A stretch of DNA of 64,000 nt from an uncultured Candidatus Saccharibacteria bacterium. Lineage in GTDB: Bacteria > Patescibacteriota > Minisyncoccia > Phycocordibacterales > UBA5272. Below the pieces are notes generated by a model that was not told the origin of the DNA, did not search any database, and saw only the letters and a list, made by a program, of their open reading frames with translations. The stretch is taken from contig CAZEIK010000003.1 of assembly GCA_964512315.1 (NCBI GenBank), positions 22,548 to 86,547 of the forward strand. The letters are read 5' to 3'. A program made the translations under genes and the position numbers. Shown in pieces: positions 1,729 through 64,000 of the stretch. Numbering within the stretch: the first letter of the stretch is position 1; each line of letters starts with the position of its first letter.

Positions 1729-2037
1729 CTATAACCCCATTTCTAATTTTAAGTCCTCAGGCGCCTCCCATGGTGGATCAAATGTTAATTCAACTTGGCA
1801 TTCACCTTTACCTAGATTGTTCACATTGTTCTCAACATCTTCTATCAAAGTATCCACAAAAGGACACATCGGGCTTGTGAGAGTCATGGTCACTCTGATG
1901 TACTCATGCACACCTAACTCTTCGAAATATTCTCCTATTTCTATATTACGAATAAGGCCAAGCTTGACTATGTCATATCCAAGTTCTGGGTCTAATACTT
2001 TTTTTAATGCCCCTGTAATTATTTCTTTATTGAGCAT
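1729..2037 (-). CDS. DUF59 / SufT-like (MIP18 family) Fe-S cluster assembly protein.
   Basis: 102 aa. Conserved DP-x-Y-DIV-LGLI and MTLTSPMCP motifs. Last gene of the suf cluster; overlaps sufC. Confidence 0.75.
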   Translation of the reverse strand: MLNKEIITGALKKVLDPELGYDIVKLGLIRNIEIGEYFEELGVHEYIRVTMTLTSPMCPFVDTLIEDVENNVNNLGKGECQVELTFDPPWEAPEDLKLEMGL

Positions 2038-2693
2038 ACGCCGTTTTCTATTTTATATATTCTGTTTATGTTTAGCTTTTCGGCTTCTTTTGAGTGACTG
2101 ATTAGCGCAACAGCAGATCCTATTGATCTCATGTGCTCTATAACTTTATACACCTTTTCTATCGCAACCTTGTCCACACCGCTATCCGGCTCATCCAAGA
2201 ATATGTATTTTGGCTTCAGAGCTAATATATGTATCAGATCTGCTTGCTTTTTCTCTCCACCCGAGAAGCCGACATTTAGGTCTCTTGTTAGAAGATCTGT
2301 ATCTAATCCAAACATCTCACACTCTTTTATAAGTGAGTCTTTGAAGTCTTTGGCTGATAAGTTATTATTCTCATTTATGTTTTTATAAGCCTTATAAAGT
2401 AGTGACAGTGTGCTGATACCTTCTATTTCTGGAACATTTTGTAAACCCAAGTACATACCCATCTTAGCCATCGCCTCTACGCCTGCATTTGTTATGTCTT
2501 CGTTATCTAGGATTATTTGTCCTGATGATATTTTATAGCCTGGGTATTTGAATATGCCACGCATAAGAGATGATTTACCACTACCATTTTCTCCTTCTAT
2601 CAGAATCAGTTCACCAGAAGATATTTCTAAATTAGCCTCTTTTATCAGCTCCATCTCTTCCAGATTCACATTTAAATTATTTATTTTTAGCAT
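2019..2693 (-). CDS. sufC: Fe-S cluster assembly ATPase SufC.
   Basis: Walker A GENGSGKSSL, ABC signature FSGGEKK, Walker B ILDEPDSG. Confidence 0.9.
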   Translation of the reverse strand: MLKINNLNVNLEEMELIKEANLEISSGELILIEGENGSGKSSLMRGIFKYPGYKISSGQIILDNEDITNAGVEAMAKMGMYLGLQNVPEIEGISTLSLLYKAYKNINENNNLSAKDFKDSLIKECEMFGLDTDLLTRDLNVGFSGGEKKQADLIHILALKPKYIFLDEPDSGVDKVAIEKVYKVIEHMRSIGSAVALISHSKEAEKLNINRIYKIENGVCSIKK

Positions 2694-3054
2694 AATCTTT
2701 TAAGGCTTCTTCGAGGGCATTATAACATAGCAAGGCGCACGCTGCTCTACTTGGTGTTATCTGTACTCCTAACATTTTATAAATATCGCCCGGCATCATA
2801 TTCTTAGCAGTTTCAACCTTTTTGTTAAGTAACTCATCAGTTATCATGCTCATGCCAGCTTGAGATATAGCACAACCCTCACCTACGAATGTGGCTTTGT
2901 TTATGATCTCGCTCTCAATATTCAAATACAATGTCCCATTGTCACCACAAGAAGGATTCTTGCCATATCCAACACAAGAACAAGGGTTAAGTATTTCCTT
3001 GTTATGTGGATTCCTGGCGTGATCCAATATATTGTCCAAATAAAGCTCATCCAT
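2677..3054 (-). CDS. sufU: SufU/IscU-like Fe-S scaffold (NifU N-terminal type).
   Basis: 125 aa with conserved NPxCGD...GxGC...Ala-Cys scaffold cysteines. Confidence 0.8.
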   Translation of the reverse strand: MDELYLDNILDHARNPHNKEILNPCSCVGYGKNPSCGDNGTLYLNIESEIINKATFVGEGCAISQAGMSMITDELLNKKVETAKNMMPGDIYKMLGVQITPSRAACALLCYNALEEALKDYAKNK

Positions 3055-3055
3055 A

Positions 3056-4252
3056 TTATTTTAAAGTCTTAATAGCAACCTTTAGAGCCTCAATAAAACT
3101 ATCTATGTCTTGTTTGGTGTTATAAAAATAAAAACTGACCCTTGATAATGCATTAACTTTGAGGTGTTGCATTGCTAATTGCGCACAATGATGTCCAGCG
3201 CGCATAGCTATTTCGTGCCTGCCTAATATTTCAGCAATATCATGCGGATGTATACCACTTACTGAGAAGCTTACAATACCTACATTATTATTAATATTTG
3301 AATGCACTTGTACATCATCTAATTCTGATAATTTACTTATTGCATATTCTACTAAGTCTGCAATATGACTATTCTGACTTAGTATATTATTATCTTGAAT
3401 GTATTTGATAGCCGCTGCAAAGCCTATCACTTCTGCTATGCCGGCAGTACCAGCTTCATGGGCGCGCACGTCACTTCTGTAGCTACTTTCTGCCTCATTC
3501 ACCTCCCAGACCATACCGCCACCAAAAGTAACAGGTCTAAGGTTACGCAATAGATTACGCTTGATTATGAGCGCTCCCACGCCAGTTGGTCCACACATTT
3601 TGTGTGCAGACATATACACAGCATCCAGGTTAATATGTTTAAAATTAATATCGATATGTCCGGACGCTGCTGTAGCATCAGATATTATATATGCTCCAAA
3701 AGCTTTAGCTTTTTCAGCTAACTTTGCCACATCAAATATTTCTCCGGTCACATTACTAGCAATTGGGCAGCTAACGATAAAAGTGTCGCCATCTATCAGT
3801 TGCTCCATCTCTTCAAAAGTGTGAGCAGAAATAGTCAAGTTATTCCTTTTCGCTAGCTCTTGTAAAGGTACAAGATCTGAGTGATGTGCGAATTTTGAAA
3901 CTAATATTTTATTTTTGTTCGGAGTAACAAGTTGTTCTAGCATTCTGACTAGCTTATTACTTCCATCGGTTGACCCAGAAGTGAAAATAACTTCACCTAC
4001 TTCTGAGTTGAAAAACTTTGCTACAACTTCTCTCGCTTCATTGTATTTGCCTGTCGCAGTGGCAGCGCTTTTGTATAGGCCTCTATCTATATTAGACCTG
4101 TATTTAAAGTAATACTCATTCATTGTATTTACTACAATATCTGGAGTAAGTGATGATGCAGCTGTGTCCAAATACACGAGATCCTTCCCGTGTTCATCTT
4201 TATAATTAGCAAATATAGAAAAGTCTTCTCTATTCATCTTTAATATTGACAT
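3056..4252 (-). CDS. sufS: Cysteine desulfurase SufS (class V aminotransferase).
   Basis: 398 aa. PLP lysine region SAHKMCGPTGVGAL and C-terminal active Cys (HHCA). Confidence 0.9.
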   Translation of the reverse strand: MSILKMNREDFSIFANYKDEHGKDLVYLDTAASSLTPDIVVNTMNEYYFKYRSNIDRGLYKSAATATGKYNEAREVVAKFFNSEVGEVIFTSGSTDGSNKLVRMLEQLVTPNKNKILVSKFAHHSDLVPLQELAKRNNLTISAHTFEEMEQLIDGDTFIVSCPIASNVTGEIFDVAKLAEKAKAFGAYIISDATAASGHIDINFKHINLDAVYMSAHKMCGPTGVGALIIKRNLLRNLRPVTFGGGMVWEVNEAESSYRSDVRAHEAGTAGIAEVIGFAAAIKYIQDNNILSQNSHIADLVEYAISKLSELDDVQVHSNINNNVGIVSFSVSGIHPHDIAEILGRHEIAMRAGHHCAQLAMQHLKVNALSRVSFYFYNTKQDIDSFIEALKVAIKTLK

Positions 4253-4272: not shown

Positions 4273-4866
4273 TTAACAATTAAGAAATCCAGCAACTAAT
4301 TCTGATTTTGCCTCTTCCTCGCTGAATCCATGTAACTTGGCATAAAAGACCTTTTCTTCATTTACACCACCTATTGATACCGCATGCGTAGTTGGGAATG
4401 TGTCGCTCTCAATATCAAGACTTGGCTCGGCATCTATTTCTGATGTGTTGTCTAATATAATAAATTTAGCTGATTGCTTGCCTTCACCTGTTGAGTCTTG
4501 TTTTGCTGCCAGTGAGCTGCGATATATTATTCTGCCTCCATTTTCTGCTACTCCACGAGATTCGATATGGCTACTAACATTTTTATTATTTGAAATGATT
4601 TGATGATATACATCACCCACTTCACCGCTTCCCATTTTTCCTGTAGCTTTGATTTTTATCTCTATGTCACTAGCTTCTGATTCGCAAACAATAGATACTA
4701 AGCCGTTAACAATATTGTGATGCACATATGTGTCATCGTTACAGAAAATACGATACCTGCCAGGGTCGGTTATTACTATGTCTCCATTGCCACGAATTAT
4801 CTTTTCTTCTTGTGTGGCATAAGGACTTTCAACTTTTAATCCATACTTTTGCATTATTATTGACAT
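4273..4866 (-). CDS. sufD: SufD-like protein, C-terminal half only (SufBD beta-helix and C-terminal helices).
   Basis: 197 aa. Ends with the SufB/D family C-terminus (FYAKLHGFSEEEAKSELVAGF). A stop codon lies immediately upstream in frame. Confidence 0.7.
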   Translation of the reverse strand: MSIIMQKYGLKVESPYATQEEKIIRGNGDIVITDPGRYRIFCNDDTYVHHNIVNGLVSIVCESEASDIEIKIKATGKMGSGEVGDVYHQIISNNKNVSSHIESRGVAENGGRIIYRSSLAAKQDSTGEGKQSAKFIILDNTSEIDAEPSLDIESDTFPTTHAVSIGGVNEEKVFYAKLHGFSEEEAKSELVAGFLNC

Positions 4867-4932
4867 TATAACATACTAGTTGTAGTATTAAAAGTAGGCA
4901 TAGCAACAATCAACCAAGATTGAGGAGTTCTC

Positions 4933-5160
4933 ATGGCTAAAATGTTTTACAGAATTCATCCGGGCACTGTTTTGACTCCCGGGTGTACGCTGTCGCGAAG
5001 CATGCGACCAGACCTTGATGAGACGCTTACATTTGTAGAGCGGTCATTTTTCGATGACGAAGAGCATTACGGCGACCCTTGTTACGTTTGTAAAGATCAC
5101 CTCGGACACACTGAGGCTGTGTCGCAAGAACAAATTCTGAAAATGTACTTCTCTGCTTAG
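4933..5160 (+). CDS. Orphan 75-aa protein in a compositionally foreign cassette (about 50% GC).
   Basis: Strong ribosome-binding site (GAGGAG-N6-ATG) and its own terminator. Opposite strand to the suf genes. No recognisable domain. Confidence 0.5.
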   Translation: MAKMFYRIHPGTVLTPGCTLSRSMRPDLDETLTFVERSFFDDEEHYGDPCYVCKDHLGHTEAVSQEQILKMYFSA

Positions 5161-5179
5161 TTCTGGCTACACATCCCCG

Positions 5180-5207
5180 AAAGCCACTGCGGTGGCTTTT
5201 TGTTTTG
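5180..5207 (+). terminator. Intrinsic terminator.
   Basis: Hairpin AGCCAC-tgcg-GTGGCT followed by TTTTTGTTTTGG. Confidence 0.7.
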
Positions 5208-5256
5208 GTTTGGTGTAGGATAAAATCTGGCTCAAACTACCAAAAAGGAGACTAAG

Positions 5257-5688
5257 ATGTCATTTGTTTTTGACCCTAGGATTAACCCCACTGCACCACT
5301 GGACCCAAATGACCCAGCACCAACTCACTGGGTCGATATCGAAACCTCAGACTATCGTGCCGCTCTGTTTGGTTTCGCTAGTGAAACCTTCGAAGGGTGT
5401 TCCAGGTGGGAGGTGCGTGAGTTGCGCCGTTGGCGTGCACTAAACCCTAAAACGCTCGAAGGCTTCACTACTAACACACTCTGGGAATCGATACCTGGAA
5501 TGGGTGGTAGCCTGAATAATCTAGAGTTGGTTGATGTCCAACAAGAACCTTTCTATGATGAAGACGGTGCATCTTTGCGCCTGATGCTGTATTTCGTGAC
5601 AAGCGAGTACGGTAAGCTGATCAAGATTCCTGCATTTGGCTTCAGGACGAAGTATCGCGAAAAAGAAAAACCGGATATTGTGTCTTAG
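5257..5688 (+). CDS. Orphan 143-aa protein in the same foreign cassette.
   Basis: Ribosome-binding site AAGGAG-N7-ATG, about 50% GC. Its stop overlaps the sufB stop in convergent orientation. Confidence 0.5.
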   Translation: MSFVFDPRINPTAPLDPNDPAPTHWVDIETSDYRAALFGFASETFEGCSRWEVRELRRWRALNPKTLEGFTTNTLWESIPGMGGSLNNLELVDVQQEPFYDEDGASLRLMLYFVTSEYGKLIKIPAFGFRTKYREKEKPDIVS

Positions 5689-7007
5689 CTCATCTCTAGC
5701 TCGACGAGTCTATTGAACTCGACGGCGTATTCTAGGGGAAGTGCACGGATGATGTCTCCGACGAATCCGCCCACTATGATGCGATAAGCGTTATCCTTGC
5801 TGAATCCGTGCCCCATGAGGTAGTGCAGCTCCTCATCACCTATCTTGCCGACAGTCGCCTCATGTGTGACGTCGGCATTTTTATTTTGTATTTTATTCAT
5901 CGGCCAAGTATTAGATACTGACTTATTATCAAGAATTAGTGCGTCACAACCAACAAATGACTTGGTATTCTCGGCTGACTTACCAACTTGAACAAAGCCG
6001 CGATAATTAGACACCCCACCATCCTTGGACACACTTTTGCTTCTTATTATTGATCTCGTATTTTTACCCAGATGTATTACTTTACTTCCTGTATCTTGAT
6101 CTTGATTCTCTCCTGCGAATACTATACCCATAGACTCACTACGACTGTAGTCGCCAAGTAGTACTGATGTTGGATATAACATAGTCACAGCAGACCCCAT
6201 GTTACCGTTCACCCAATTGATCTCACCATTTTTATAGACCAAAGCCTTCTTGGTGTTGAGGTTATAAGTGTTCTTGCTCCAATTCTCAACGCTGATGTAT
6301 TTTGCTTTTGCATTTTCCATTACTATAACTTCAACGCATCCAGCGTGTAGGCTACTAGCTGTGTATTTTGGTGCACTGCAACCTTCTATGTATTCAACAG
6401 TTGCGCCATTTTCTACAATTATCAAAGTGTGTTCAAATTGTCCTGCACTAGGAGCATTCATGCGAAAGTAGGCTTGTAACGGCATTGTAACTTTTACACC
6501 CTCTGGAACATATATAAAAGTCCCACCACTCCATACAGCGCCATGCAATGCTGTAAAAGTGTGATCCTTGGCTGGCACACAGTCAGTCATGAAATATTTC
6601 TTAACCAGGTCAGGATACTTTTGTACAGCCACATCCATGTTCTCAAATATAACTCCTTGCTTAGCTAATGTGTCTTTGATTCTGTGATATACAACACCTG
6701 AGTCATACTGCGCACCTACACCACCCAGGTACTCCCTTTCAGCTTTTGGTATACCAAGCTTTTCAAATGTATCAGTTATCTCTTGGGGCAGCTCTGCCCA
6801 ACTTTTCTTTTCGTCTACAGACGGGTCAATGTAATAGTTAATTTTGTCTAATTCTAATTTAGATAGATCCGGCCCCCAAGTGGGAATTTTGGAAGACTCA
6901 AAAATAGCAAGAGCCTCTAATCTCTTTTGTAGCATCCACTCAGGCTCATTTTTTGAAGTGCTGATTTTCCTTACTAGCTCCTCAGTGATAATTCCTTTTA
7001 AAGGCAT
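5685..7007 (-). CDS. sufB: Fe-S cluster assembly protein SufB.
   Basis: 440 aa with high similarity to SufB along its full length. The 3' about 200 nt are unusually GC-rich (about 55%). Confidence 0.9.
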   Translation of the reverse strand: MPLKGIITEELVRKISTSKNEPEWMLQKRLEALAIFESSKIPTWGPDLSKLELDKINYYIDPSVDEKKSWAELPQEITDTFEKLGIPKAEREYLGGVGAQYDSGVVYHRIKDTLAKQGVIFENMDVAVQKYPDLVKKYFMTDCVPAKDHTFTALHGAVWSGGTFIYVPEGVKVTMPLQAYFRMNAPSAGQFEHTLIIVENGATVEYIEGCSAPKYTASSLHAGCVEVIVMENAKAKYISVENWSKNTYNLNTKKALVYKNGEINWVNGNMGSAVTMLYPTSVLLGDYSRSESMGIVFAGENQDQDTGSKVIHLGKNTRSIIRSKSVSKDGGVSNYRGFVQVGKSAENTKSFVGCDALILDNKSVSNTWPMNKIQNKNADVTHEATVGKIGDEELHYLMGHGFSKDNAYRIIVGGFVGDIIRALPLEYAVEFNRLVELEMS

Positions 7008-7050: not shown

Positions 7051-7485
7051 TTAAGAACAATTCTTACAGATACTATAAATATACACAGCAGCACTGTTGC
7101 CACCTTTGAATTTTTTTGTTCTACGTATAATCTTTTTTACTTGATCTGAAATATATTTCTCTGGAAAGCTTTCTACACTACCACAAACCTGACATATAAT
7201 CTGACTTTTTGGTGTGTGAGTCGATATTTCATAAGTAAAAGAGTTGCCAGCATGTGTATATTTTCTTATTGCGCCAACCAGTTCTAAAGTTTTTAAATTC
7301 CTATATATTGTTGCCTGATCTATATCTTTTTGAACAGCAAGAGAAGCCGTTAGCTTTTGTGCTGAGACGGGAGTTTTTGACTTCGCAATATAAGTAAGAA
7401 TAAGAATCCTGTGATCAGTAACTTTCAAAGAGTGCTCTTTTATATAGTTTTTAATTTCTTCTTTTTTTAGCAAAGTAGTCATCAT
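7051..7485 (-). CDS. Fur-family metalloregulator (Fur/PerR/Zur type).
   Basis: 144 aa. N-terminal winged-helix region (TDHRILIL...IYRNLKTLELVG) and C-terminal CxxC...CxxC metal site (CQVCG, CKNC). Confidence 0.75.
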   Translation of the reverse strand: MMTTLLKKEEIKNYIKEHSLKVTDHRILILTYIAKSKTPVSAQKLTASLAVQKDIDQATIYRNLKTLELVGAIRKYTHAGNSFTYEISTHTPKSQIICQVCGSVESFPEKYISDQVKKIIRRTKKFKGGNSAAVYIYSICKNCS

Positions 7486-7589: not shown

Positions 7590-7952
7590 ATGAGTGATAG
7601 TCCTATCGACTATGTAGGCACTGTATTGCGTGCCAAAAGAGATGAAAATTCCCCCTGGGGTGTGCTATCTGGTACAACCCGCTACGGGCAACGCACGTTG
7701 ATCGAACCACAACAAGGTGGCTCTTACCTAATCATCGAGTGGCAAAACCACAGCTGGGAGACAAACGTCCTCAGCTCAGAAGATGAAGAAGTCATGCGGC
7801 TGCCAGAAGTCAGAATGGCTTTGCACTTGATTGCTACCGGTTACCAACATGTTCCTGCGGTAAAAGCTGGCGTGCACGCGATGTACACGAAACTTTCATG
7901 GATGAGAAACCAGTTCATTCCAAACGAAAACTGGCAGACAGCGAACTCGTAA
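7590..7952 (+). CDS. Orphan 120-aa protein in a compositionally foreign cassette.
   Basis: About 50% GC in a 35% GC background. Ribosome-binding site AGAGG. Followed by an intrinsic terminator. Confidence 0.5.
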   Translation: MSDSPIDYVGTVLRAKRDENSPWGVLSGTTRYGQRTLIEPQQGGSYLIIEWQNHSWETNVLSSEDEEVMRLPEVRMALHLIATGYQHVPAVKAGVHAMYTKLSWMRNQFIPNENWQTANS

Positions 7953-7973
7953 AGCTTCGCTGCCCGAGAAGAA

Positions 7974-8001
7974 GGTGCTCATCTGGAGCACCTTTTGTTT
8001 T
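7974..8001 (+). terminator. Intrinsic terminator.
   Basis: Hairpin GGTGCTC-atctg-GAGCACC followed by TTTTGTTTTG. Confidence 0.75.
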
Positions 8002-10530: not shown

Positions 10531-12102
10531 TTAAATTGGTAAATTATTAGGCGCGTCACCTTTGACACTATCAACCCTACGCAACCCTGGTGTTGTTGCA
10601 ACAGCTCCAGGCAAGTGCCATAAAGTTGCAAGCTCTTCCAAGTTAAGTACGAATACATTATCTGGATGAGGATGATGTGTAGGGTAAAGGAATCCTTCCC
10701 ACATTATACGACCTATCTTACGAAAGCCCAATGACCTTTTGAACAGTGCCCAGTCCCACCAATCATCTATGTCAATAATATTTTTTGGTTTGCTATTTTT
10801 ATTTCTAACTTCTATGTGTGGGTAGAATGCTTCGCGCTCAACATAAGCTTCGAAGAATTCTTCTTTTCTCCATGGCTTGCGTTTTTTAAAAGTGTCTTGC
10901 CAATCATAATCATATGGGTCAGATGGACTAAGTCCAAATGTGTTATATCCTGGTTGAGACATATGTTTGAACACGCTTAATACAGATTGAATATTTTGGC
11001 CATTAAAGTTTTCTTTTTTAGCAAGATACATAACCCTAATAGCTGCACGCACTGTGGGTTTAGAAAGTTTTTTACCTATAGCTTCTATTTCCTTCTTTTC
11101 TTCTTCGTGCAAGTCCATCGGTTTCTTCTTTTCAAATCTTTCCTCGTCATCTTTGCCATAAGTAAGGTCGACTTCTATCTCTTTTTCAGAACCGTCTTCT
11201 TGTTTAACTTTTATTCTTTTCTTTTTAGCGTTACCATACTCGTCATAAATAGTGTCTCCTTTTTTATATTTACCCCCAACCTTAACTTCTCTTATCTGTT
11301 TAATTCTAAGGGCCGCCAATTCTTTTAGGGTTAGATGTTTGTGATCCAGAGGATTAACATATGTGGCATCAAATTTTTTATTGTTGAAGCTTCCATCTTC
11401 ATCTTGCACCATTATCTGATACCAGCCGAATTCATTTTTACCCAGAGAGCCCAACCACTCCAGCATTGGAGTAAGCGGATCATGTTTGAACTCCTCTTTG
11501 GGATCTTTATTCATCTCAAAGTCAACATATGTTTTGATTGGTATATAATCAGCTTTCATTTCTAGCTTTTCCAGCTTCTTACCCTTATCCTCTTCTTGAA
11601 CTGTAAATTTTCTGTTCGTAAAAAAATCGCACGCCCACAAGTTAGTCTGATCCGATCTGTGGTCGTAGAAAATTTTTGTAACATAGTCCTCAGCTTCATT
11701 TATTTCAATGTTAGGGTATTGAGAATAGAAGTTATTTTGTATAAGTTGTATAAACTTTTTCTGAGTTCGTATAAAAAATCTAACATTACCTTCTATTGAA
11801 GCGATTTCTAAAGAAAAGAAAATTGGTAAGTTACCTTTTATATTTCTCACATACCAATTACCTATTCCTCCTCCCTGAAGAAATGCCGCTGAGGCTATCT
11901 CAGTAGCAAGAGGTGATTTAAATACATCTCGAGGAATTTTTATTTCTAATAACTTCCAATCTAAACCATCCAAATGTTTCTGATTAACATACAACATCCA
12001 GAACTTCCAGGCCCAAGCACACATAATTAAGAAAAGGGATAGATATACAACAAATAAGAAAATATCTAAAACTATCTGCATTTGTTGTAAGTATAACAAC
12101 AA
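10531..12102 (-). CDS. Hypothetical membrane-anchored protein, 523 aa.
   Basis: N-terminal 2-TM region, then a large K/E-rich soluble domain. No family recognised. Confidence 0.5.
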   Translation of the reverse strand: MLLYLQQMQIVLDIFLFVVYLSLFLIMCAWAWKFWMLYVNQKHLDGLDWKLLEIKIPRDVFKSPLATEIASAAFLQGGGIGNWYVRNIKGNLPIFFSLEIASIEGNVRFFIRTQKKFIQLIQNNFYSQYPNIEINEAEDYVTKIFYDHRSDQTNLWACDFFTNRKFTVQEEDKGKKLEKLEMKADYIPIKTYVDFEMNKDPKEEFKHDPLTPMLEWLGSLGKNEFGWYQIMVQDEDGSFNNKKFDATYVNPLDHKHLTLKELAALRIKQIREVKVGGKYKKGDTIYDEYGNAKKKRIKVKQEDGSEKEIEVDLTYGKDDEERFEKKKPMDLHEEEKKEIEAIGKKLSKPTVRAAIRVMYLAKKENFNGQNIQSVLSVFKHMSQPGYNTFGLSPSDPYDYDWQDTFKKRKPWRKEEFFEAYVEREAFYPHIEVRNKNSKPKNIIDIDDWWDWALFKRSLGFRKIGRIMWEGFLYPTHHPHPDNVFVLNLEELATLWHLPGAVATTPGLRRVDSVKGDAPNNLPI

Positions 12103-45894: not shown

Positions 45895-45948
45895 TTGACA
45901 ATATTCAAATAAAAAAGTATTATTAGAGTCAGAAAGGAGGGCCTAACT

Positions 45949-46191
45949 ATGCCCCGTACTACCGTAACAAACGAACAGGTTCGAGGTTTTGTAAGCGCAA
46001 TCAACCGGGTTAATCCGAATGTACCGCAAGAAAAAGCGGTCCACCGGATCACCCTTATTGTCAGGAGGGTCCCAAGTTACCTGCTCAAGAGTTTCTTGCA
46101 TGCAGGTATCCCGGCCATCAAAGTTCAAGCGTACGCAACAACGGCCGAAATCATGGCCCAAATGCGAACAGACGCAGTAACGCTCCACTAA
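45949..46191 (+). CDS. Orphan 80-aa protein in a compositionally foreign cassette.
   Basis: Upstream TTGACA-17nt-TATTAT promoter-like element, ribosome-binding site AAAGGAGGG. About 50% GC. The terminator hairpin is embedded in the 3' end of dnaX. Confidence 0.5.
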   Translation: MPRTTVTNEQVRGFVSAINRVNPNVPQEKAVHRITLIVRRVPSYLLKSFLHAGIPAIKVQAYATTAEIMAQMRTDAVTLH

Positions 46192-47165
46192 CCCTCGATC
46201 ACCGCTCCTAACGCCGCCATCAGTGCGGCGTTCTTGTTTTTAGAATATTCAAAAACTGGCTTCTTCTCTAAAAGGAATAACAAATTCTTAGAAGTAAATA
46301 CCGCCTCATGCGCCATAACAAAATCTGAGAATTCAATATCTTCTTCCCCGCTTACCTTTTGCCTTATTAACATACCCTTACGTATAGCTTCTAGCATCTC
46401 ATCATAGAAGCCCGCTCCAACTTCGGCTTTGTCTATATCAGAAAAAAGCTTCTTAATATCTTTGTTATGGACATCTGCCAGGAGATTGTTAATCACTTCT
46501 CTGTCGCCCAAGCGGAACAAACTCTTAATGTCTTCGTATTTAATATTATTACCCAAAGTGTGAAAGACTGTCTCTAGGTTAGACAATGCATCGCGATATG
46601 AGTTGTTACTTTTGCTTGCTAACAAGTCAGCTGACTCATCATCAATTTTAATACCTTCACCTTTTGCTACTTTTAATATTTGTTCAACAAGTGTGTCGCG
46701 GGTGGCTTTTTTGAATTCTATTATCTGAGAGCGCGAGCGAATAGTTGGCAGCAACTTGTCAGCATCAGTAGTACAAAGTATAAAAATAATATGCTTAGGC
46801 GGCTCCTCCAAAGTCTTAAGCAATGCATTGCTGGCCTCCTTGGTTAACATGTGTGCCTCGTCTAATATGTAGACTTTGTATTTTGAATACACCGGCAGCG
46901 TGTGTATTGCTTCACGCAAATCACGAGCCTCATCTATGCCACGATTACTCGCAGCGTCCAATTCAAAAACATCAGCCGGATCAGTACCTAACTCACGAGC
47001 GAACAATCTAGCTAATGTGGTCTTACCTATACCATGCCCACCGCAAAATATATAAGAGTGAGGGATATTTTCTGTTTTACTTATTGAAAGTAGTGTTGCA
47101 ACCGCTGCTTTTTGCCCTATGACTTCGTCAAAGCTATTCGGTCTCCATTTTCGATAAAAACTCAT
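46188..47165 (-). CDS. dnaX: DNA polymerase III subunit gamma/tau, short form.
   Basis: RPNSFDEVIGQ, Walker A GGHGIGKTT, DEAH box. The C-terminal 14 aa are encoded by the GC-rich hairpin sequence. Confidence 0.8.
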   Translation of the reverse strand: MSFYRKWRPNSFDEVIGQKAAVATLLSISKTENIPHSYIFCGGHGIGKTTLARLFARELGTDPADVFELDAASNRGIDEARDLREAIHTLPVYSKYKVYILDEAHMLTKEASNALLKTLEEPPKHIIFILCTTDADKLLPTIRSRSQIIEFKKATRDTLVEQILKVAKGEGIKIDDESADLLASKSNNSYRDALSNLETVFHTLGNNIKYEDIKSLFRLGDREVINNLLADVHNKDIKKLFSDIDKAEVGAGFYDEMLEAIRKGMLIRQKVSGEEDIEFSDFVMAHEAVFTSKNLLFLLEKKPVFEYSKNKNAALMAALGAVIEG

Positions 47166-62097: not shown

Positions 62098-62233
62098 ATT
62101 TAGATTGTAGCATTAAAAATTGCTAATATAACTAGTTTAAATATTTGACACCTATAAAAGTAAGTTGTATAGTGATATTTAAATTTTGAGTTCGCTCAAA
62201 ACAGATCTTTCAACCACCCGAGGAGATACGTTA

Positions 62234-62956
62234 ATGTCACAAGTATTTCAAGCTACGAGTCCGACGCACAACACCAACCCAAAAGACCTGCTAAATGCAG
62301 AGATCGGGGAAACTTTCAAGATTGCCTTAAGGAAAAAAGAAGGTAATCGCAACTATTCGGGTTACATCATGCTCGAAGTCATACTCGTGGACGGTAGTCC
62401 TGCCGTAAAGGTTACCGACTCCACTTTCGAGCCAATTCAACTTCAAGACTACCATCGGCTACATTTATGGATAAGCCACCTGAAATTTAAAAAGTTCCAT
62501 CACGCAAGAGGCCAAAAAGGTCAGCTACTCTCTGAACTTTTCAATGCCCTACTTTGGGCCACATCGAGCGACTACATACCTCCACAAACTCCCAAAAACA
62601 GGGAACCACATCTCAGGCTCGTGGTTCCTCAACCGAGACCAGCTGCTATACAGCTGGGAGAAGAGAAGGTTGTACCAATTACTGAAGACTTCGTCTTTGG
62701 GAAACTCAAGCCCAATCAATTCATCCTTGGTAGTGGCAAAGTCGCAGGCCGCAACTACGTTCTCTTGCGGAAGCATAATGATGGCTACGGGGTCATGATG
62801 ACACTCGTCAGAACAGACATCGAATGTCTTGCCGGACTTATCAACACAAAAGACGGCGAGGTCAGCATGTCCGACATACGCAACAACAAAGGCCAATTTG
62901 GTGGCTGGCTTTATGACATGCTCCCGCTTATTGGCAAATTCAAATGGAGAACATAA
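62234..62956 (+). CDS. Orphan about 240-aa protein in a compositionally foreign cassette.
   Basis: Ribosome-binding site GAGGAG before the internal ATG 62234. About 50% GC. Strong terminator. Abuts the tRNA-Leu 3' end. Confidence 0.5.
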   Translation: MSQVFQATSPTHNTNPKDLLNAEIGETFKIALRKKEGNRNYSGYIMLEVILVDGSPAVKVTDSTFEPIQLQDYHRLHLWISHLKFKKFHHARGQKGQLLSELFNALLWATSSDYIPPQTPKNREPHLRLVVPQPRPAAIQLGEEKVVPITEDFVFGKLKPNQFILGSGKVAGRNYVLLRKHNDGYGVMMTLVRTDIECLAGLINTKDGEVSMSDIRNNKGQFGGWLYDMLPLIGKFKWRT

Positions 62957-62975
62957 GGAAAGGAGGATCCCAAAC

Positions 62976-63007
62976 CAAAAAGCCGCTCTCGCGGCTTTTT
63001 TTATTTT
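62976..63007 (+). terminator. Intrinsic terminator.
   Basis: aaaaagccgc-tctc-gcggcttttttt. Confidence 0.8.
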
Positions 63008-63008
63008 G

Positions 63009-63090
63009 TGCCCAGGAAAGGACTTGAACCTTCATGCCTCGCGGCACTTGCTCCTAAGGCAAGCGTGTCTACCAATTTCACCACCTGGGC
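63009..63090 (-). tRNA. tRNA-Leu(UAG).
   Basis: Long variable arm. Anticodon loop CTTAGGA. GCCCAGGTGGTGAAATTGGTAGACAC... Confidence 0.8.
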
Positions 63091-63128
63091 AGGTGTGTAA
63101 TGTAAACATTCTAACATAAAAACAAAAA

Positions 63129-63147
63129 ACTTCTAGTGCCCCCAGTA
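63129..63147 (-). repeat. 19-nt copy of the tRNA-Lys 3' end (T-loop / acceptor 3' strand). att-site-like direct repeat.
   Basis: gtgcccccagtaggattcg is identical to 63264-63282. Confidence 0.7.
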
Positions 63148-63265
63148 GGATTCGGTCACAAAACATATTCCGCTAACGCTTCATTGTTTCGCGACCCCGT
63201 ATTCGGATCCTAACAAAAAGATATTTCGATATCTTTTTTCTGTGTTCACAATTTTTACAAAATTG

Positions 63266-63338
63266 TGCCCCCAGTAGGATTCGAACCTACGACCGTCTCC
63301 TTAAGAGGGAGCTGCTCTACCAACTGAGCTATGAAGGC
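63266..63338 (-). tRNA. tRNA-Lys(CUU).
   Basis: GCCTTCATAGCTCAGTTGGTAGAGC..., anticodon loop CTCTTAA, T-loop TTCGAATCC. Confidence 0.8.
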
Positions 63339-63414
63339 AATTAAAAAATATATTAACACACAAAATACTTTTTGAAAATACGCAAAACAAAAGGCCGGAT
63401 TTTTAGTCCGGCCC

Positions 63415-63861
63415 TCACGTCGACATCTCACTCTCTTTGCACAACTCCAGTAACTTAATTGCCGGGCGAATACTGATGTAAAGCACACCCTCTTTTGGTT
63501 GATGGCAAAGACAATGGTGGGTTAACTCGAGGAACTTCTCTGCCACGAGTCCCAGAACCGCTTGAGTGAAGAATTTGCGAAAGTTAGGATCCGATGACCC
63601 CTCGTAATGCTGCGAGAAAACTTCGAACAGATTCTGGGAGCAAATGTACCTACCATGAAAGTCGACTTCTACAAATAAGCGAATCAAGCAAGCCTGTATC
63701 TCTTGTACCTCACTAGCTCGATGATCGTCATAAGCCCGGACCTCTTCCTTTAGCTTGTCATGTAGATCAGTAACCGCCCAATTCAAGAAAAGCAGAAAGA
63801 GGAGACAGGGTGTAGTAGTCTCTAGATCAAAAAACTCTAGCACCTCTAAGACCTCCAGCAT
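63415..63861 (-). CDS. Orphan about 149-aa protein in a GC-rich region that extends past the window end.
   Basis: Ribosome-binding site AAGGGAGG-N6-ATG (63861). Terminator hairpin ggccggatttttagtccggcc at 63393-63413. Confidence 0.45.
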   Translation of the reverse strand: MLEVLEVLEFFDLETTTPCLLFLLFLNWAVTDLHDKLKEEVRAYDDHRASEVQEIQACLIRLFVEVDFHGRYICSQNLFEVFSQHYEGSSDPNFRKFFTQAVLGLVAEKFLELTHHCLCHQPKEGVLYISIRPAIKLLELCKESEMST

Positions 63862-64000
63862 AATCTGGCCTCCCTTCAAGAAAAAATAGTTGAACTAATG
63901 GCGCTCAACAACGAGCCCACCGCTTTCTCAAGCTCGAGAATGAGGCCGATAATTGGATATGCGGCCTCGATACGCAGACACACCAGAACCGTGGCGCACA

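Follow-up and report, generated by a model that had tools for sequence, protein, structure and literature searches.

Does a half-length sufD gene beside a cassette of foreign-looking genes mark a gene that was broken by an insertion, or is it a native short form with an independent insert next to it? This question is raised by the SUF iron-sulfur (Fe-S) assembly locus in a stretch of 64,000 nucleotides (nt) from an uncultured Candidatus Saccharibacteria bacterium (GenBank assembly GCA_964512315.1, contig CAZEIK010000003.1, positions 22,548 to 86,547 of the forward strand). We refer to this whole stretch as the window and give all positions in its coordinates; loci of relatives carry L numbers. 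A sequence-only reading of the window had proposed that an opposite-strand cassette interrupts the suf operon between sufB and sufD, and that its insertion may have truncated sufD. Our analysis supports the interruption and refutes the truncation. The best explanation, to which we assign a probability of roughly 0.85, is a patescibacterial (Saccharibacteria-like) SUF locus that combines a native mini-SufD with an independent, re-used slot for orphan genes that carry their own signals.

The gene order read from the sequence was confirmed by the open reading frame (ORF) map, the Pfam scan, and the composition profile, and the features of the locus are as follows.

7051-7485, minus strand: Fur-family (PerR/Fur-like) regulator that heads the suf region (Pfam FUR, 64 bits)
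5685-7007, minus strand: sufB, full length, 440 amino acids (aa) (TIGR01980, 656 bits versus a cut-off of 346)
5257-5688, plus strand: ORF2, orphan, 143 aa, G+C fraction (GC) 0.48
5179-5200, plus strand: predicted intrinsic terminator after ORF1, GAAAGCCAC-TGCG-GTGGCTTTT followed by a T-run
4933-5160, plus strand: ORF1, orphan, 75 aa, GC 0.47
~4868-5690: cassette of 823 bp, present in the window and absent from the close relatives L016 and L017
4855-4897, both strands: promoter block with overlapping divergent promoter-like sites
4273-4854, minus strand: sufD, short, 193 aa, with its start set by relatives
3056-4252, minus strand: sufS (Pfam Aminotran_5)
2677-3054, minus strand: sufU (Pfam NifU_N)
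2019-2693, minus strand: sufC (Pfam ABC_tran)
1729-2037, minus strand: DUF59/FeS_assembly_P (Pfam FeS_assembly_P)

The sufS, sufU, sufC, and DUF59 genes are tightly packed behind sufD, and this gene order is conserved in all relatives.

The short SufD and its relatives

An ORF of 197 aa, the length first given for SufD, does exist at 4273-4866, but its four additional codons (MSII) fall within the promoter block. Because all relatives begin at MQKYGLKV, the coding sequence starts at the ATG at 4854 and encodes 193 aa. The in-frame stop codon that had been noted upstream is there as well, a TAG four codons before the 197-aa ORF. Alignment also bears out the proposed correspondence to the C-terminal half of SufD, since the protein covers residues 279-393 of the 423 residues of E. 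coli SufD. It matches Pfam PF01458 (SUFBD_core) with 73 bits against a cut-off of 27, over profile positions 100-232 of 232 only (133 positions). It misses the NCBIfam SufD equivalog cut-offs, with 71.6 versus 222 bits for TIGR01981 and 35.2 versus 489 for NF008194, and these matches are confined to the C-terminal half of the models; the low scores come from the short length of the protein and not from an absence of homology. When profile scores are compared, the short protein leans toward SufD (71.6 bits) over SufB (61.1 bits) and SmsB (28.8 bits).

If the insert had hit a full-length sufD and removed the 5' half of the gene, so that only a 3' piece with little or no function survived, the outcome would account for the partial coverage of SUFBD_core and E. 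coli SufD, for the TIGR01981 score below the cut-off, and for a cassette that abuts the sufD start with an in-frame stop upstream. Comparison with related genomes had been named beforehand as the check on this idea, and it found the same 193-aa SufD in relatives that have no cassette. L016 and L017, two independent assemblies whose DNA is ~90-92% identical to the window, lack the cassette yet encode a 193-aa SufD that is 96% identical to that of the window. Their junction reads ...GAA ATG TCA TAA AT ATG CAA AAG..., that is, the sufB stop, 2 nt, and the sufD start. Because these close cassette-less relatives carry the same 193-aa sufD directly after sufB, truncation by the insertion is refuted, and we grant it next to no probability.

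The short form is also found in other settings, since SufD proteins of 190-235 aa occur in three other contexts across Patescibacteria. In L013 (Paceibacterota), a 449-aa sufB is followed after a 4-nt gap by a 227-aa sufD and then by sufS-sufU-sufC-DUF59; in L012, a 193-aa sufD follows murJ after an 8-nt gap; and in L010 and L011, sufD is placed after unrelated genes. The insert-free L016, L017, L012, and L013 thus have sufD genes of 193-227 aa. Relatives with 62-65% identical SufD all have 193 aa, and in a profile search the 31 nearest relatives were 190-235 aa long and ranked ahead of any longer protein; several of the 31 are named SufD by NCBI, in metagenome-assembled genomes of Patescibacteria and Paceibacterota. 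The cassette had been said to occupy the exact place of a 5' half of sufD, a claim that fails in that the cassette-less relatives carry the same gene and tblastn of SufB and longer SufD proteins detected no remnant of a SufB/SufD N-terminal half in 4855-5690. Selection on the gene is not relaxed: the ratio of nonsynonymous to synonymous divergence (dN/dS) is 0.09 versus a strain at dS 0.36, which indicates that sufD is under purifying selection and that its product looks functional rather than like a remnant. A SufD of ~193 aa therefore appears to be the standard form in the phylum and not the outcome of a truncation.

Structure prediction points the same way. An AlphaFold2 model built with 30 homologues (predicted local distance difference test score, pLDDT, 91.9; predicted template-modelling score, pTM, 0.85) is a compact fold, a ten-strand beta-helix capped by two C-terminal helices. 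Its best Foldseek matches in the PDB are E. coli SufD chains 1vh4_B, 2zu0_B, and 5awf_B, with query template-modelling scores (TMq) of 0.77, 0.73, and 0.70 and a probability of 1.00 each, and it superposes on E. coli SufD chains over ~184 of its 193 residues. The N-terminal helical domain and the full-length beta-helix of the ~420-aa protein are not present. In E. coli, SufD H360 is one of three cluster-site residues, together with SufB C405 and E434 (PMC12442378). The H360 equivalent is kept in the window SufD, where 'PTTHAVS' aligns with 'CSHGAT', and this His is invariant in 30 short SufDs; the equivalent of Cys358 is Thr. The window SufB, which aligns to E. coli SufB residues 37-489, retains the equivalents of Cys405 and of His433-Glu434, and thus both of the SufB cluster-site residues. 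In this model, the window SufD is made up of the distal beta-helix half, to which the two C-terminal helices are joined, and it keeps the cluster-ligand His.

Compared with E. coli SufD (1VH4, 2ZU0, 5AWF), the window protein shares SUFBD_core homology, the right-handed beta-helix with C-terminal helices (TM 0.70-0.77), the His equivalent to H360, and an operon context with sufB, sufS, sufU, and sufC. It differs in size (~193 versus ~423 aa), in the absence of the N-terminal helical domain and of approximately the first half of the beta-helix, in its score below the TIGR01981 cut-off, and in the Thr at the Cys358 position. A reduced scaffold of the SufB/D family is also known from SmsB (M. jannaschii MJ0034, ~316 aa, PDB 9H78 and 9H7Y), to which the window protein has a weak profile and fold match and which shows that shortened beta-helix scaffolds can work. 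Unlike the window locus, with its full-length SufB and SufD-leaning short protein, SmsB is homodimeric, SufB-like, and independent of SufD. Proteins of the candidate phyla radiation (CPR) are shorter on average (PMC9297842), and our literature search found no paper that discusses a half-size SufD.

A re-used slot between sufB and sufD

The insert between sufB and sufD had been described as foreign-looking, and it is. ORF1 and ORF2 have a measured GC of 0.47-0.48 versus ~0.37 in the flanking genes and a GC at third codon positions (GC3) of ~0.47 versus ~0.27-0.40 in their neighbours; they have Shine-Dalgarno (SD) sites and a predicted promoter and terminator of their own; and relatives with an empty site exist. 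The overlap of the ORF2 stop codon (TAG, 5686-5688) with the sufB stop codon (5685-5687) was likewise confirmed. By blastn, L016 1-208 corresponds to window 5898-5691 and L016 205-1671 to window 4867-3400, with an 'ATG' microhomology of 3-4 nt at both cassette junctions. The cassette is therefore a genuine present/absent polymorphism between sufB and sufD. Neither direct nor inverted repeats were found at its ends (4868 and 5690), it has no transposase or integrase genes, and it does not qualify as a transposon, an insertion sequence, or an integron.

Three subclades can be distinguished by SufD identity: the window with L016; L001-L005, L007, and L008; and L006, L009, and L018. The slot is filled in every member of these subclades except L016 and L017, and its content differs even where SufD is 89-99% identical. 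The contents, in which families A, B, and C denote small orphan protein families, are as follows.

Window: ORF1 (a singleton) and family A
L001-L003: family C and family A
L004: family C and family B
L007: an unlinked 108-aa ORF and family B
L008: family C only
L009: family C and the C-terminal half of family B
L018: the N-terminal half of family B only

Thus, the cassette is a strain-variable insert that appears to be dispensable. How its alleles move is shown by L020 and L021, both of which are colinear with the window and gap-free. Between the window and L020, the suf flanks have a dS of 0.20-0.37, whereas the cassette has a dS of ~0.06 and its intergenic DNA is identical at 174/174 positions. 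L020 and L021 are almost identical to each other over 4800-5700, with three differences, all in 4900-4999, but across sufS and sufD most 100-nt windows contain 1-18 differences. Because a near-identical cassette sits between divergent flanks in this L020/L021 mosaic, we conclude that cassette alleles are swapped between strains by homologous recombination via the conserved suf flanks.

Substitutions that separate the window from L020 and L021 are clustered at the 3' ends of ORF2 and sufB (5617-5800), with 13 of them in 5600-5699. When the window is compared to L016, the last 33 nt of sufB hold 11 differences versus 12 in the preceding 181 nt (p=9e-5). Hypermutation of ORF2 of the kind caused by diversity-generating retroelements was considered and rejected; the substitutions include several types and are arranged as a mosaic left by recombination.

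The empty site of L016 and L017 may represent either a secondary deletion or, with the opposite polarity, the retained ancestral state. Deletion is favoured because of the phylogenetic distribution (parsimony) and a shared AATGTCA. Such a deletion would have joined the ATG of the penultimate sufB codon to the ATG within 'TATAATGTCAA' of the promoter block, so that the last sufB codon of L016 and L017 would be TCA, where others have AGC or GCT, and AATGTCA would be retained.

Other parts of the neighbourhood were also characterized. A gene for a YibE/F-family membrane protein lies between fur and sufB in some relatives (L020 4778-5803; L007 2532-3617) and not in the window, so the fur-sufB junction is evidently variable among relatives as well. 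The Fur-family regulator at 7051-7485 scores under the cut-offs of the NCBIfam PerR/Fur models. A 'tRNA-Pyl (cta)' called by ARAGORN at 6823-6900 on the plus strand, inside sufB on the opposite strand, has no Rfam support and is almost certainly a false positive. Farther away, 10531-12102 on the minus strand encodes a 523-aa protein with an N-terminal hydrophobic segment and no Pfam match.

Expression signals at the split operon

An insert at this position raises the question of how the genes behind it are expressed, and the sequence-only reading had reasoned that sufD-sufC would need a new promoter inside or after the cassette. A candidate was found. About 40 nt adjoining sufD, with the consensus CTACTTTTCATACTACAACCAGTATGGTATAATGTCAA, are nearly invariant in seven cassette-bearing loci that represent three subclades, with a SufD identity of only 61-67% between these; conservation collapses directly upstream of this block, which occurs once in the window. 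On the minus strand, the block contains a candidate sufD promoter with the extended -10 element TGTTATAAT (TGnTATAAT), whose TATAAT (4865-4870) lies 10 nt before the sufD ATG. On the plus strand, ahead of ORF1, it contains a candidate cassette promoter composed of TTGACA (4860-4865), a 17-nt spacer, and TAGTAT (4883-4888). The cassette -35 and the sufD -10 share one base, such that the two sites overlap back to back. The promoter that sufD-sufC would need in the split operon may therefore be supplied by the predicted extended -10 of the promoter block.

TATAAT also lies 5-7 nt before the fur and sufB ATGs, with TGATATAAT 5 nt ahead of that of fur; because of these two further cases, near-leaderless starts seem to be usual in this genome. 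More broadly, many core genes of the window and of eight related loci have TGnTATAAT 5-16 nt before the ATG. The predicted terminator hairpin after ORF1 is present in both the minimum-free-energy and the centroid folds, and a terminator scan found none between ORF2 and sufB. An operator, suggested by the inverted repeat CATACT-N6-AGTATG, was considered and set aside: L009 and L018 show no compensatory change, and the sequence is better explained as the -10 element of the cassette promoter.

These elements fit together in a simple model. In this clade, the sufB|sufD junction has become a permissive slot that holds 0.5-1.0 kb with one or two small, opposite-strand orphan genes, whose composition and translation signals differ from those of the host genome. 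Each slot gene would be a self-contained unit with a promoter, a strong SD site, and, for ORF1, a terminator. Slot content turns over quickly, is exchanged by homologous recombination via the suf flanks, and can probably be lost cleanly. The insert would uncouple sufD-sufS-sufU-sufC-DUF59 from sufB, and the uncoupled genes would be served by the extended -10 located 10 nt before the sufD ATG, which would give rise to a near-leaderless mRNA.

The orphan genes and what they may represent

Given that ORF1 and ORF2 lack annotated functions, we examined their relatives. Neither these proteins, nor those of a third orphan (ORF3, described below), nor family B or family C proteins have a match in Pfam, PHROG, PADLOC, or NCBIfam. 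Searches by tblastn and blastn of 50,697 phage records and 72,556 plasmids gave no match that would indicate a phage or plasmid origin, and two scans of JGI metagenomes found nothing. ORF1, which has the SD sequence GAGGAG 7 nt upstream, forms a single-member cluster with no relatives beyond L020 and L021; it differs from the L020 copy by 1 nonsynonymous and 3 synonymous changes, and no relation to family C was found.

ORF2, preceded by the SD sequence AAGGAG, can be divided in two. Residues 1-62 (5257-5442) constitute a family A small-protein domain, and residues 67-143 are an extension limited to the strain group of the window, with no relation found to family B or to a 170-aa protein of L019. 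An exhaustive HMMER search identified 30 representative clusters of family A at E<=1e-3, mostly of 62-90 aa, with the pattern FxFxxPVDPxxPLDPxDPPPxGW...CxEWEKRELxR and the invariant residues F5, P11, D19, P22, W51, R54, E55, and R58. Family A thus appears to be a real, undescribed small-protein family. In the AlphaFold2 model of ORF2, residues 1-60 have a pLDDT of 81-96. The model opens with a proline-rich N-terminal segment predicted with confidence, continues with two helices and a weaker sheet of three strands, and has no fold counterpart in the PDB.

Family A is also found elsewhere. The str operon of GCA_022841985.1 (L019 6001-6710) has two tandem family A genes between rpsG and fusA, with strong SD sites and flanking terminators. 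One gene encodes 66 aa and the other 170 aa, which include a separate C-terminal extension. Their GC is 0.45 versus 0.50-0.55 in the ribosomal-protein and elongation-factor genes of the same region. Because the GC of family A stays at ~0.45-0.48 whether or not the host is AT-rich, the family fits a shared mobile pool. Our best guess is that the orphan proteins are dispensable accessory or selfish genes that play no role in Fe-S assembly.

The cassette invites comparison with two known kinds of small-gene system. As with phage morons and strain-variable islets, its genes are small, have deviant composition and a predicted promoter, ribosome-binding site, and terminator of their own, lie between conserved genes, are present or absent in close relatives, and are not essential for the function of the flanking genes. 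Unlike phage morons, the cassette resides in a bacterial chromosome within a housekeeping operon and no prophage, its slot is re-used by different families, and searches of PHROG and of phage and plasmid collections revealed no phage, plasmid, integrase, or transposase link. It resembles a type II toxin-antitoxin system in having two adjacent, strain-variable small genes (75 and 143 aa) in intergenic DNA; it differs in the terminator and 96 nt that separate ORF1 from ORF2 and in the lack of a conserved pair, since the partner of family A may be ORF1, family C, or a second family A copy in tandem. A toxin-antitoxin or defence system was rejected on these grounds and on negative Pfam and PADLOC results.

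Might the plus-strand ORFs be chance frames in a structured non-coding RNA or in decaying DNA? In AT-rich genomes, GC-rich islands between genes often turn out to be structured RNAs, ORF1 has no relatives outside its strain group, L009 and L018 have truncated family B copies, and the dN/dS of ORF2 is ~1 versus L020 and L021 while the intergenic DNA of the cassette is fully identical. The conservation of the ORF2 N-terminal domain, indel-free and with eight invariant residues across 30 diverged relatives, speaks for genuine genes, as do the SD sites, which are properly spaced from the initial ATG of both ORFs. The Rfam matches in the window are tRNAs only, and the inter-ORF region shows no more folding than shuffled sequence does once the terminator hairpin is set aside (z = -1.1), so we rejected a structured-RNA reading of the spacer and judge the absence of real genes to be very improbable. 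Somewhat less improbable, though still unlikely, is a cassette that acts as a regulatory device, in which transcription of ORF1 and ORF2 converges into the 3' end of sufB, the peptides are secondary, and overlapping promoters make expression of the cassette and of sufB/sufD mutually exclusive or subject to antisense control. The base shared by the cassette -35 and the sufD -10 within the conserved block would suit such a device, as would the overlap of ORF2 with the sufB stop codon (the sufB-proximal ORF of other relatives reaches 32 nt into sufB), the lack of a terminator between ORF2 and sufB, and the adjacent Fur-family regulator. Because the slot may be empty (L016, L017), hold a single gene (L008), or hold truncated genes (L009, L018), no fixed transcript length or content seems to be required. 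Furthermore, family A is conserved as a protein and also occurs in an unrelated operon, where it is co-oriented with the adjacent genes, and the terminator after ORF1 limits read-through.

Several points weigh against our preferred reading of a native mini-SufD next to an independent slot. The promoters, the terminator, and near-leaderless translation are predicted from consensus matches and conservation, and that the half-length SufD forms a complex with SufB and SufC is something that we infer. ORF1 has no family to support it. The dN/dS of ORF2 is ~1 versus its closest allele, and the window's copy could be decaying. The empty site of L016 may be ancestral, although deletion is favoured. 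Since the cassette is present in all of the nearest relatives but L016 and L017, an ancient single insertion is inseparable from the origin of the split operon. Finally, the contrast in SD usage described next may be inflated in the related loci by a bias of gene callers toward SD-led small ORFs.

We defined an SD site as GGAG, GAGG, or AGGA at -18 to -4. In the window, 4/4 GC-rich small orphans have one versus 0/50 ordinary genes (Fisher p=3e-6). Across eight related loci (L004, L007, L009-L013, L019), SD sites precede 17/26 Pfam-less genes versus 2/60 Pfam-bearing genes (p=1e-9). This suggests that two classes of translation initiation may coexist within one genome, an SD-less core and SD-led small genes without Pfam matches. 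The third orphan in the window, which lies on the far side of fur and had not been part of the original finding, is among these four and belongs to the same class.

7590-7952, plus strand: ORF3, 120 aa, GC 0.49, SD-led, in the mnmA|fur gap, with a terminator at 7970-7996

The mnmA|fur gap is a second variable slot, because L004 (117 aa) and L009 (128 aa) hold orphans there that are not homologous to that of the window. Opposite-strand, SD-led small ORFs were also observed at sufD|sufS in L013 (5730-5948, 72 aa) and at sufS|sufU in L011 (6903-7256, 117 aa); judging from these sequences, the suf cluster evidently often hosts such inserts. Elsewhere in the window, the ORF at 46188-47165 has directly downstream of it a minus-strand ORF of 81 aa (45943-46188; GC 0.51, GC3 0.57, preceded by an SD-like motif) that seems to be one more of the GC-rich orphans. 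At 62186-63879, DNA with a GC of 0.42-0.48 contains two Pfam-less ORFs (256 aa, plus strand; 154 aa, minus strand) that flank tRNA-Leu (63008-63090) and tRNA-Lys (63265-63338), and this region may be an integrated element beside tRNA genes.

A bolder generalization, which we put forward tentatively and regard as unlikely in its full form, is that these Patescibacteria carry a distinct, horizontally circulating pool of SD-led small genes of ~45-49% GC, family A among them. If this were true, genes of the pool would repeatedly colonise core-operon junctions (sufB|sufD, mnmA|fur, rpsG|fusA, sufD|sufS, sufS|sufU) in hosts that otherwise translate without SD sites, and would represent a new class of mobile or selfish micro-elements or of host-interaction genes, spread by flank recombination with no recombinase. 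As a separate part of this generalization, a phylum-wide mini-SufD would show that a SufBC2D-type scaffold can work with only half of SufD.

For annotation, a half-length sufD beside foreign-looking genes in Patescibacteria, where the short form is native, should not be taken as a sign of a disrupted gene. The contrast between an SD-less core and SD-led orphans could help to trace the origin of CPR orphan genes. A SufD of ~190 aa paired with a full-size SufB amounts to a natural minimal-scaffold experiment and suggests which part of SufD is needed. The slot beside it is a re-used insertion site inside an essential operon, with filled, empty, and differently filled alleles among close relatives. 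A fixed promoter that would compensate for the split of the operon at such a slot makes this locus an instructive case of patescibacterial genome dynamics.

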